Shown one piece after another: positions 44,328 to 46,377 of a stretch of DNA of 64,000 nt. The notes beneath the pieces were generated by a model. The model made no database searches, was not told the DNA's origin, and saw only the letters and a list, made by a program, of their open reading frames with translations. Position numbers and translations under genes: made by a program. The stretch is from assembly GCA_023386645.1 (NCBI GenBank), contig JAEWJI010000007.1, positions 4,243-68,242 of the forward strand, read 5' to 3'. Each line of letters opens with the position of its first letter. Position 1 is the stretch's first letter. Source of the stretch: Pseudomonadota bacterium (GTDB lineage Bacteria > Pseudomonadota > Alphaproteobacteria > Caulobacterales > Caulobacteraceae).

Positions 44328-44597
44328 TCAGCCCATGCCGTAGTGGGCCGCCAGCGCCCCCAGCGCCGCCTTCAGCCGCAGCTTGCCCTCCCGCCGCTTC
44401 AGGCCCAGCTGTCGTTCAGCCAGGGTCAGCGAGCTTTCGCGCAGACACACGGCCTCCAGCATCGGGGCCAGCCGGGGGCCGCAGGCGTCGAGCGCCCGCC
44501 GCACCCGCCGGCCCGCCGCCAGGGCCCGATCGGTCTGCTCCCTGCGGGCGCTTGAGCCGCCGCCCGGCCGGGGCAGGGCGTCCCAGCGCATGGTCAT
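44328..44597 (-). CDS. GafZ-like C-terminal part (DUF6456-type HTH)
   Basis: MTMRWDALPRP...LEAVCLRESSLTLAERQLGLKRREGKLRLKAALGALAAHYG. The ATG overlaps the TGA of the preceding ORF (ATGA). It may be the downstream half of a frameshifted gene. Confidence 0.6.
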   Translation of the reverse strand: MTMRWDALPRPGGGSSARREQTDRALAAGRRVRRALDACGPRLAPMLEAVCLRESSLTLAERQLGLKRREGKLRLKAALGALAAHYGMG

Positions 44598-45028
44598 GGA
44601 CGGCCCGTCTGGGCCTGCTCCCAGTCGGCGCGCAGCCGTTCGGCCGCCGCCACCTCGGCCGGTTCCAGCCAGGGGCGCCCGTCGAGTCCCTTGCGCCGCG
44701 CCAGCCACAGGACAGGCGACTGGCCAAGGTTGGCGGGCTTGAGCACGACGCGACCGTCCGCCTCCATCACCGCCTTCTCGCCCGGCTCGAACCCTGGCCG
44801 GCCGGCGGCGGGACCGTCCGCGACCGGCGCGCGCCCACGCCAACCGCCGGGCGTCGCGACAAGACCCGGAGATTCGAAAACCGCCTGGAAGGTCGCGGCA
44901 TCCAGTTCCAGCACCACCCGGCCGCGCCGATCCGGTGACAGCCGCAGGCGATAGACGTCCGGCCCGCCTTCGATCCAGGCCTCGCGCCGCGCCAGCAGGC
45001 TTCGCGCCCTCTCCACGCGCCGGCTCAT
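44594..45028 (-). CDS. GafZ-like N-terminal part
   Basis: 144 aa. NLGQSPVLWLARRKGLDGRPWLEPAEVAAAERLRADWE is the motif I associate with DUF6456/GafZ-type proteins. The ATG overlaps the stop of the upstream gene (ATGA). Confidence 0.62.
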   Translation of the reverse strand: MSRRVERARSLLARREAWIEGGPDVYRLRLSPDRRGRVVLELDAATFQAVFESPGLVATPGGWRGRAPVADGPAAGRPGFEPGEKAVMEADGRVVLKPANLGQSPVLWLARRKGLDGRPWLEPAEVAAAERLRADWEQAQTGRP

Positions 45029-45459
45029 GCGAGATCGAGCCTGGGCGTGTCGAACAGCTGGCGAGTGATGCCCTCCAGTTCGTCCAGCAGGCGGTCGACC
45101 TCGGGCCGGTCGCGCTCGTCCTCGGCCCAGCGACAGGCCTTGCCCGCCGTCGTCCGGTTCACCGCGAAGGCGTGGCTCACCCGCTCAAGCGCCCAGCCGT
45201 AGGCCACATGGGCCAGATACAGCGCCAGCCATCGCGCACGACAGACGGCCGGGCGCATCCGCCCGGGCAGGGTCATGGCCTCGGGCGGCACGCCGGTGCG
45301 GGCGGCGACGAGGCTCAAGGCCACCTGAGCCCGCAGGCGGTCCGGCTCGCTGGCCGGGGGTTGGTAAGGCTGGTTCACGAAAAGCTCCCGCTTGGCTGCG
45401 GCCCCCGCCGCAGCACCTAGGAACATAATCCTATCGACATGCGTCAAATGCGGTCGCAT
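45025..45459 (-). CDS. DnaA domain-IV-like HTH protein (GafY-like)
   Basis: RARWLALYLAHVAYGWALERVSHAFAVNRTTAGKACRWAE resembles the DnaA C-terminal DNA-binding helix-turn-helix. The first dozen codons have poor GC3, so ATG 45426 is an alternative start. Confidence 0.68.
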   Translation of the reverse strand: MRPHLTHVDRIMFLGAAAGAAAKRELFVNQPYQPPASEPDRLRAQVALSLVAARTGVPPEAMTLPGRMRPAVCRARWLALYLAHVAYGWALERVSHAFAVNRTTAGKACRWAEDERDRPEVDRLLDELEGITRQLFDTPRLDLA

Positions 45460-45503
45460 CGATCCAGCCCCAGCCGAATTTCCCCTCGGACGCGTTTTTT
45501 AGC

Positions 45504-45556
45504 GAATCGTTGACTCACGCCCCTCGACGGCGATTCGCAAATCAGCCTAGTGATTC
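45504..45556. promoter_or_regulatory. cluster of four GANTC (CcrM-type methylation) motifs in the ctrA / gafY-like intergenic region
   Basis: GAATC 45504, GACTC 45512, GATTC 45532, GATTC 45552. The first and third lie in an 8-bp inverted repeat, GCGAATCG...CGATTCGC. Confidence 0.6.
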
Positions 45557-45570
45557 TCCGTGGGGCGGCG

Positions 45571-45602
45571 TTAACCCTTCTTAAGGGTTCGGCCGGTTAA
45601 CC
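45571..45602. promoter_or_regulatory. TTAA-rich candidate CtrA-binding region upstream of ctrA
   Basis: TTAA at 45571, 45581 and 45597. The last is TTAACC. The spacing of the first pair is N6 rather than the canonical N7. Confidence 0.35.
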
Positions 45603-45669
45603 TCCGAACAAGGTTACCCGTTATGCAATCGGCGGGTGGCACGGCCAAGCTTCGCCTGGAGGGGCATGA

Positions 45670-46377
45670 ATGCGCGTTCTGCTTATCGAAGACGATCACG
45701 CAACCGCGCAGAGCATCGAGCTGATGCTGAAGTCGGAAGGCTTCAACGTCTACACGACCGACCTCGGCGAGGAAGGCATCGATCTCGGCAAGATCTACGA
45801 CTACGACCTGATCCTGCTGGACCTCAACCTGCCGGACATGAGCGGCATCGAGGTGCTGCGCCAGCTGCGCGTTGGCAAGGTCAACACACCGGTGATGATC
45901 CTGTCGGGCAGCCATGAGATCGACACCAAGGTCAAGACCTTCGGCGGCGGCGCCGACGACTACATGACCAAGCCCTTCCACAAGGACGAGCTGATCGCGC
46001 GGGTTCACGCCGTGGTCCGTCGCTCGAAGGGTCACGCCCAGGCCATCATCACCACCGGCGAGATCGCGGTGAACCTGGACGCCAAGACGGTGGAGGTGAA
46101 CGGTCACCGCGTCCACCTGACCGGCAAGGAATACCAGATGCTGGAGCTGCTCTCCCTGCGTAAGGGCACGACCCTGACCAAGGAGATGTTCCTGAACCAC
46201 CTCTATGGCGGCATGGACGAGCCGGAGCTGAAGATCATCGACGTCTTCATCTGCAAGCTGCGCAAGAAACTGGCTACGGCCGCCGACGGCAAGCATTACA
46301 TCGAAACCGTCTGGGGCCGCGGCTACGTCCTGCGCGATCCGGCCGAAGGCGCCCAACCGGCCAGCGCCGCCGCCTGA
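45670..46377 (+). CDS. ctrA: cell-cycle response regulator CtrA
   Basis: [59 protein letters not shown]...[50 protein letters not shown] is nearly identical to Caulobacter CtrA as I remember it. GGAGGGG RBS. Confidence 0.97.

Follow-up and report, generated by a model that had tools for sequence, protein, structure and literature searches.

Does a short minus-strand operon, lying head to head with the cell-cycle regulator gene ctrA, encode the on-switch of a gene transfer agent (GTA), and is that switch still whole? The question is raised by 64,000 nucleotides of contig JAEWJI010000007.1 (assembly GCA_023386645.1), from an alphaproteobacterium of the Caulobacteraceae; this whole stretch is referred to below as the window. 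GafYZ, or its one-protein form GafA, is the dedicated on-switch for GTAs, particles that spread DNA of the host at the cost of the cell producing them, which is killed. The mode of activation, by GafY with sigma-70 and IHF and by GafZ through anti-termination, is known only for Caulobacter (PMC11150451, PMC9632790), and the switch depends on CtrA in Rhodobacter, whereas in Caulobacter control of GTA synthesis by the CtrA pathway is reported not to apply (PMC9632790). We consider it probable, with some reserve, that the window carries a Brevundimonas-type gafY–gafZ operon, i.e. a split GTA activator, in which gafY is intact and gafZ is really and recently frameshifted, disabling or weakening GafZ. 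The original prediction, made by a model from the DNA letters, had counted three minus-strand genes chained by ATGA overlaps; the coordinates and the overlaps stand, and the genes are really two, the second of them frameshifted. The features concerned are as follows.

45025–45378, minus strand: gafY (hdaB-type), 117 amino acids (aa) from a GTG start at 45378, a DnaA-domain-IV-like protein delimited by homolog lengths, with a GC content at third codon positions (GC3) of 0.87

45025–45459, minus strand: open reading frame (ORF) 1 as first called, overlapping ORF 2 by ATGA at 45025–45028

45379–45459, minus strand: the first-called N-terminal extension of ORF 1 (27 codons from ATG 45459), non-coding, with the gafY leader, Shine–Dalgarno (SD) sequence and core promoter

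44594–45028, minus strand: ORF 2, the gafZ 5' fragment, 144 aa, matching DUF6456 profile positions 3–46 at aa 99–142 (53.8 bits)

44328–44597, minus strand: ORF 3, the gafZ 3' fragment, 89 aa from ATG 44597, matching DUF6456 positions 49–135 (76.4 bits)

44604–44606 (plus-strand CCC), minus strand: apparent 1-nucleotide deletion in gafZ, in the Gly codon of the A-x-x-G-P-S-(L/M/V)-T-M-R-W-D motif, the window reading CAG ACG GG- CCG TCC ATG ACC

That ORFs 2 and 3 jointly carry a DUF6456 module had been predicted and agrees with Pfam (PF20057; cutoff 26.3 bits), in which a single domain is divided over the two ORFs. Joined, they give a protein of 233 aa that aligns over 98–100% with more than 110 proteins of 231–263 aa at 52–62% identity, almost all of them from Brevundimonas among the matches listed (the protein searches list the best 120 matches, all or almost all Brevundimonas). 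A scan of a representative set of 185,579 genomes, one per species and not including the window organism, gave 302 relatives, of which 80 related loci were kept for comparison; in all 80, both halves of gafZ lie in one continuous frame. The window has 144 aa and 89 aa in place of the intact frame of about 235–245 aa. Because a single DUF6456 domain is divided, the joined protein aligns end to end and the 80 loci all have one frame, ORFs 2 and 3 are, to judge from these alignments, one gafZ gene broken by a 1-nucleotide deletion. The break can be followed in protein and DNA. Relatives share the motif A-x-x-G-P-S-(L/V/M)-T-M-R-W-D-A-L-P; ORF 2 ends in A-Q-T-G-R-P-stop, and the frame of ORF 3, homologous to the relatives from about 44605, encodes G-P-S-M-T-M-R-W-D from upstream of its ATG. 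The relatives' DNA reads CAG TCG GGG/GGC CCG TCS (C/A/G)TG ACC at this point (77 loci compared).

The two ATGA overlaps are of different standing. The one at 44594–44597 is a by-product of the deletion and not an evolved junction, because the TGA is the automatic outcome of xTG-ACC after a frame slip and Met is an ordinary variant at the ATG position. The notion that ATG 44597 was created for translation restart was rejected on the same ground, Met being present there in eight of 114 intact homologs. The ATGA at 45025–45028, made of the gafY stop and the gafZ start, is genuine and translationally couples gafZ to gafY; the N-terminus of GafZ, MSRRVERAR, lines up with the starts of the intact homologs.

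The GafY homologs of Brevundimonas are 117–119 aa long (50–62% identity). An SD sequence and a start codon are conserved at the position of GTG 45378 (the window SD is GGGAG at 45387–45391), an in-frame stop lies between a conserved palindrome, described below, and the GafY core in 44 of the 58 loci with an exact palindrome, and the extension has a GC3 of 0.63, the core one of 0.87. On account of the homolog lengths, the conserved SD and start, the in-frame stops and the lower GC3 of the extension, gafY is taken as 45025–45378, encoding 117 aa. The distance between gafY and ctrA is therefore 291 bp, and not the 210 bp of shared control region that followed from a start at ATG 45459. Across 78 intergenic regions, the stretch between the conserved promoter blocks and the gafY coding region is poorly conserved.

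The DnaA domain-IV-like helix-turn-helix claimed for ORF 1 is borne out by profile and fold. The GafY sequence itself matches Pfam Bac_DnaA_C (PF08299) with E 1.7e-4 and 21.9 bits, under the gathering score of 31.5, and NCBIfam PRK06030.1-3 with 78 bits, below cutoff; searched singly against solved structures, among which the family has none, it gives a weak DnaA match. A precomputed PF08299 match is present in most of the Brevundimonas homologs, and a profile of 19 homologs matches the DnaA domain IV structures 1j1v, 1l8q and 3pvp with E 2e-7 to 1e-6. The AF2 model of GafY, with a predicted local distance difference test (pLDDT) score of 92.9, superposes on the DNA-binding domain of Mycobacterium tuberculosis DnaA (3pvp) with a template-modelling score (TMt) of 0.79 and a root-mean-square deviation of 2.1–2.2 Å.

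By their sequence profiles, the DnaA-domain-IV-like gene and the DUF6456 gene can be assigned to gafY and gafZ, and the assignment holds. The gafA homologs carry the DUF6456 annotation (PMC9638019, PMC9765227). When the GafZ profile was searched exhaustively with HMMER, 2196 cluster representatives reached E <= 1e-3, the majority of them 230–300 aa long; several of 357–392 aa are matched in their last ~170 aa only, and one such cluster includes a ‘helix-turn-helix domain-containing protein’ of the Rhodobacteraceae/Paracoccaceae. In the 387-aa representative of this cluster (P0263), the GafY profile aligns at aa 31–83 (hhalign E 3.6e-5); the match to the GafZ profile covers aa 225–383 (E 7.5e-26, 38% identity). 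Since the GafY match is N-terminal and the GafZ match C-terminal, this is the GafA architecture, the likeness to rcc01865 being one of architecture. The pairing of a DnaA-like part with a DUF6456 module, which the original prediction had called GafA-like, is thus supported by a fused Rhodobacteraceae protein. Gene order points the same way: gafY–gafZ is followed by sufE, with divJ downstream and nearby, and the Caulobacter-like neighbourhood near divJ that had been pointed out is the one found. In Caulobacter crescentus, GafY is CCNA_01111, first named HdaB, and GafZ is CCNA_01112 (PMC9632790, PMC7049699); divJ is CCNA_01116, which by the numbering places gafYZ five genes from it, and ctrA is CCNA_03130, far from gafYZ (PMC7200025).

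The older name stands for another function. The DnaA-IV-like protein could be mainly HdaB, which inhibits the regulatory inactivation of DnaA and promotes the restart of replication, with ctrA next to it as a matter of replication and cell-cycle control and not of GTA control. It was as HdaB that CCNA_01111 was first described, homologs from three Alphaproteobacteria cause over-initiation (PMC7049699), and the window has ctrA, cckA, chpT and divJ together in 38 kb. Gozzi et al., however, ascribe the HdaB phenotypes to GTA induction (PMC9632790); moreover, the gene shares an operon with the DUF6456/gafZ gene and is coupled to it in translation, and both parts are fused in one GafA-type protein in Rhodobacteraceae. 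We regard a primary role as HdaB as very unlikely, and continue with gafY as one half of a GTA activator.

Several points weigh against a GTA activator operon with a truly broken gafZ. The likeness to CCNA_01111/01112 and to rcc01865 is drawn from published descriptions. The search for a GTA cluster covers the 64 kb of the window: as had been predicted, no GTA structural genes (terminase, portal, capsid, tail), nor any of a phage, are found by Pfam and NCBIfam among its ~55 ORFs, and the scans return only chromosomal housekeeping and cell-cycle genes. The two assemblies that show the break, the second of which is described below, possibly come from the same reads, in which case a shared error is possible. 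Furthermore, the break comes where a helix ends and a low-confidence loop begins, between two predicted modules, and the ATG overlaps the gafZ stop, so two coupled polypeptides could still work. A phage origin of the locus was rejected, there being no relatives in IMG/VR viral contigs. As to GTA genes in the genus, Brevundimonas strain ATCC 15264 serves as the Caulobacterales reference for GTA capsid homologs in one paper (PMC9836097), and Brevundimonas subvibrioides has a 26-gene GcrA-dependent phage-like operon, Bresu_0058–0084, for which no particles were seen (PMC7987155).

The missing G might be a sequencing or assembly error in a short G/C run, the organism itself having an intact gafYZ operon. 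In keeping with this, the indel lies within a GGG/CCC run, both fragments are perfectly conserved without decay, and gafZ is intact in all 80 related genomes. On the other side, an independently built assembly, a 3171-bp Logan contig from SRR13358383, is identical to window positions 42599–45769 with the break included, the run is merely three to four bases long, and no other divided or truncated Pfam domain occurs among the ~40 window ORFs with Pfam matches, so that the assembly does not look indel-prone. Contigs from other metagenome runs mostly carry ctrA of other organisms, and none spans 44604–44606; the JGI metagenomes held no close relatives and no intact allele, and a set of 5.8 billion proteins no relative above 62% identity for joined GafZ among the matches listed. 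Roughly, the comparison of assemblies and relatives makes the frameshift quite probably real, and an artefact unlikely without being far-fetched. If real, the frameshift is recent, because all family-invariant residues are kept in both fragments and each has a coding GC3 in its own frame (0.83 and 0.91).

A frameshift need not silence the gene. The AlphaFold model of joined GafZ (mean pLDDT 75.7) has an alpha/beta N-module, a helix at 123–141, a low-confidence loop at 143–162 and a helical C-module at 160–230; the invariant TMRWDALP motif sits in the loop, and the break at the helix/loop boundary. The C-module (aa 160–230) has its best PDB matches in region 4 of M. tuberculosis SigL (3hug; TMt 0.62–0.69, prob 0.84–0.96, weak E 0.45), which hints weakly at a sigma-region-4-like helix-turn-helix at the C-terminus of the predicted protein; among solved structures, the sole match of the GafZ profile was a spurious maltose-binding protein (MBP)–homeodomain chimera. 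From this model one may envisage a functional three-part system, in which termination–reinitiation at the ATGA yields a 144-aa N-module and an 89-aa C-module that assemble non-covalently, so that GafZ would have undergone a split like the one that gave GafY and GafZ from GafA. The position of the break between the predicted modules, the overlap of ATG with TGA, and the invariant residues and coding GC3 signature of both halves would suit such a system, and one split is already tolerated in the family (PMC9638019, PMC9632790). Nevertheless, no second case occurs among the more than 110 proteins and 80 loci, the Met and the TGA have the ordinary explanations given above, no SD sequence lies ahead of ATG 44597, and the cut comes directly ahead of the invariant TMRWDALP motif. 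We find a three-part system rather improbable, nothing in the model or the alignments positively supporting a working two-piece GafZ. Full-length GafZ could also be made from the two frames by programmed –1 ribosomal frameshifting, in so far as a –1 shift between the Thr141 codon and the stop would restore the family sequence. This was rejected as scarcely credible: the sequence, G GGC CGU, is not an X XXY YYZ slippery heptamer, a two-frame gafZ is found in none of the homologs compared, and no conserved downstream structure is known. A recent, damaging frameshift in gafZ remains the reading that we prefer.

How the operon is controlled, and whether ctrA has a part in this, turns on the DNA between the two divergent genes, for which conservation was taken from an alignment of 78 distinct ctrA–gafY intergenic regions. 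Its elements, and ctrA itself, are listed here.

45418–45433, no strand: palindrome TAGGAACATAATCCTA (TAGGA-N6-TCCTA; contains GGAA-CATA-ATCC), a candidate RogA-type operator over the gafY core promoter

45443–45457, minus strand: conserved block CGACCGCATTTGACG on the gafY strand (CGTCAAATGCGGTCG on the plus strand), with TTGACG as a –35-like box

45503–45620, plus strand: ctrA promoter module, with four GANTC sites (45504–45556), TTGACT at 45510–45515 and GTTAACC half-sites at 45570 and 45595/45596

45670–46377, plus strand: ctrA, matching the NCBIfam CtrA equivalog with 414 bits (cutoff 350)

Both gafY blocks are conserved at every position, and both lie inside the 27 extra codons of the first-called ORF 1. 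The palindrome has a column identity of at least 90% over the 78 regions, occurs once in the window and is exact in 58 of 81 loci; the majority sequence at the –35-like box is CTGACG. We infer from the sequence a promoter function for the TTGACG block; scanned for the sigma-70 consensus, the intergenic region gave no promoter. The gafYZ core promoter of Caulobacter has two inverted repeats, GGAA-N4-TTCC, to which RogA binds (PMC9632790), and because the palindrome resembles these PgafYZ repeats in sequence and position, a RogA-type operator is suggested. A further point must be entered against this part of the reading: the palindrome fits GGAA-N4-TTCC with one mismatch and in a single copy, and so degenerate a pattern is common by chance. 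The real evidence for a binding site lies in its conservation across species. No rogA gene was seen within the 64-kb window.

An unconserved spacer, 45460–45500, separates the gafY block from the ctrA block, which is followed by a conserved ribosome-binding region. The CcrM site GANTC is almost five times rarer in the window than shuffles predict (58 observed against 274 expected), and despite this four such sites fall in 53 bp of the ctrA promoter. GTTAACC occurs four times in the window against 0.62 expected, and three of the four are in the ctrA promoter module. The Caulobacter ctrA promoters P1 and P2 are known for GANTC sites and TTAACC-type half-sites. A full TTAA-N7-TTAA CtrA box is absent from the intergenic region, even with one mismatch allowed, and a canonical CtrA box shared by the two genes was rejected on this ground. 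By its pattern of conservation, the control region is modular, one block holding the core promoter and operator of gafY and another the promoter of ctrA, and not one shared block. The CtrA half-sites are ~113–145 bp upstream of the gafY –35-like box, and the ctrA promoter elements overall ~50–145 bp; GafY and IHF act at comparable distances on Caulobacter GTA promoters (PMC11150451). By that analogy, cross-talk between the ctrA promoter and gafY is conceivable. A gcrA mutant of B. subvibrioides shows reduced expression of ctrA (Bresu_1213), and a supplement to the same study lists a GANTC with a low inter-pulse duration (IPD; ratio 0.884) in the intergenic region that separates Bresu_1213 from Bresu_1214, where the neighbouring table entries all have an IPD ratio below 1 (PMC7987155). 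This GANTC may be an under-methylated, protein-protected site.

Two related observations concern CtrA sites elsewhere in the window. The fourth GTTAACC, at 28674–28680 between chpT and cheR (27424–28239), may be another CtrA half-site. The sole near-canonical CtrA box in the 64 kb is TTAATGCGTCGTTAG at 58383–58397, with one mismatch to TTAA-N7-TTAA, just upstream of fliI (57015–58358, minus strand).

The original prediction had seen in ctrA, as divergent neighbour, what set this locus apart. The adjacency is there, and it is not distinctive: of the 80 related Brevundimonas loci, 78 have a divergent ctrA immediately upstream of gafY, and the contigs of the other two end before it. The adjacency of ctrA and gafYZ is a genus-wide Brevundimonas trait that the window lineage shares. 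A limited literature search found no paper mentioning it, which is no proof of novelty; the genus-wide linkage is apparently unreported. One variant is seen in Brevundimonas diminuta SCAU 5 (L012, about 7962–9537), where ctrA and gafY are ~1.6 kb apart against the usual ~0.3 kb, implying an insertion into the shared intergenic region. The other side of the operon is more variable. Among Brevundimonas, the gap between gafZ and sufE ranges from 0 to 7 kb (136 bp in the window), with divJ beyond sufE; in loci L003–L080 (for example L020, 10726–17000, and L009, 10752–13544) its cargo includes a TonB-dependent receptor, glycosyltransferases, an acyltransferase and a 930-aa ankyrin-repeat protein. 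Judged by this variation, the gap is a local insertion hot spot. That the inserts might be GTA genes was rejected, the cargo being unrelated.

From the observed homology, folds, synteny, frameshift and conserved DNA elements, a mechanism can be proposed by analogy with Caulobacter; what the proteins do biochemically, which repressor binds and that GafZ function is lost are inferred. The gafYZ operon would be transcribed away from ctrA, from its own core promoter overlaid by the palindromic operator, at which a RogA-like repressor is probably bound, keeping gafYZ off. Once repression is relieved, GafY would attach to the DNA upstream of the GTA promoters and accessory promoters and bring in sigma-70 RNA polymerase, and GafZ would ride with the polymerase as an anti-terminator, allowing read-through of the GTA cluster. 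The separate ctrA promoter, rich in GANTC and TTAACC, begins ~55 bp further upstream. In the window, translation of gafZ would stop after 144 aa, the last 89 aa lying in the –1 frame; GafY-dependent promoters could still fire, and anti-termination of the main cluster is probably lost or weakened unless the fragments reassemble. It is also imaginable, if improbable, that the activator operon and ctrA form one compact divergent switch in Brevundimonas, in which CtrA~P/GcrA gate gafYZ, or GafY/IHF act back on ctrA, so that GTA production and lysis would be linked to the state of the cell cycle, with the added possibility here of GafZ as two coupled polypeptides.

The two genes on the far side of gafZ complete the layout.

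43766–44191, plus strand: sufE, convergent with gafZ (Pfam SufE, E 1.2e-41)

41906–43579, minus strand: divJ-like multi-transmembrane histidine kinase, whose best NCBIfam match is DivJ with 473 bits, below the cutoff of 1000

Coordinates and Pfam/NCBIfam matches agree with the predicted order of kinase, sufE, gafZ-like gene, gafY-like gene and divergent ctrA. The place of sufE next to gafZ is synteny kept in Brevundimonas, as seen in the locus comparison, and the kinase is 57–71% identical to the syntenic Brevundimonas gene. Identity to Brevundimonas is 92–98% for CtrA, 72–83% for SufE and 52–62% for GafZ; the GC content of the organism is 70.2%. Scans for Rfam families and tRNAs found nothing in the window.

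Some observations on other parts of the window may be added. With cckA at 8299–10359 (NCBIfam 1097 bits, cutoff 1000) and chpT at 28700–29977 (291 bits, cutoff 225, covering only aa 222–423 of an over-long ORF), the whole CckA–ChpT–CtrA phosphorelay and the divJ-like kinase are clustered with gafYZ within ~38 kb. The ctrA terminator is at 46402–46431. Just past it, a DUF559 gene (Vsr-like endonuclease fold, 46521–46919) stands between two complex palindromic G/C-rich repeat units of ~115 bp each (46448–46559 and 46921–47038), with arms 85–93% complementary; none of the 80 Brevundimonas loci has DUF559 beside ctrA, and from this comparison the unit looks like a lineage-specific insertion. At 40228–41231, a 23S_rRNA_IVP (four-helix-bundle) protein (40228–40938) and a DUF1491 protein (40629–41231) overlap on the same strand by ~300 nucleotides; the upstream parts of these long ORFs are probably non-coding. 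Two full-length DUF885 paralogs lie on opposite strands (10537–12411 and 17711–19495), and DUF2939 genes form a tandem pair at 16570–17656.

The locus is ordinary for its genus, and the remaining interest is in the ctrA–gafYZ linkage and the natural frameshift allele. The head-to-head arrangement, in which a conserved operator is separated from a conserved ctrA promoter by only tens of base pairs, is a concrete and testable place to look for coupling of CtrA to GTAs, in a genus that is cultivable and genetically tractable. The allele is a natural experiment, either in the loss of GTA activation in one lineage or in the tolerance of GafZ to a cut between its modules. There are also two lessons for annotation: the third ORF is a fragment, and gafY starts are commonly called too far upstream, over the gene's own promoter.

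Among the known systems closest to this locus is DnaA domain IV (PF08299), which has the same fold and pattern of DNA-binding helices (GafY model against 3pvp/1j1v, TMt 0.75–0.79); unlike DnaA, GafY is a stand-alone protein of 117 aa without the AAA+ domain. GafA of Rhodobacter capsulatus (rcc01865) and the GafA-type proteins of Rhodobacteraceae have both modules; GafA is one polypeptide, whose long central region binds RNA polymerase omega, and in the 387-aa fused protein the TMRWDALP motif is not kept. Rhodobacter gafA is under CtrA control and, as far as the papers on it tell, is not adjacent to ctrA. Hyphomicrobiales have a split gafA, consisting of a DnaA-like gene and a 22–32 kDa gafA, with sufE downstream (PMC9638019), the same gene order as in the window, whereas the upstream neighbour is mucR or another helix-turn-helix gene and not ctrA. 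A further parallel is Caulobacter, with a two-gene operon in which a DUF6456-type protein comes after a short DnaA-domain-IV-like one, with divJ a few genes away, and with palindromic GGAA-N4-TTCC elements over the core promoter that RogA binds in Caulobacter and that the candidate operator of the window resembles. It differs in having its ctrA (CCNA_03130) far away, whereas ctrA is the immediate divergent neighbour in the window and in Brevundimonas, and the gafZ of the window differs again in being frameshifted.

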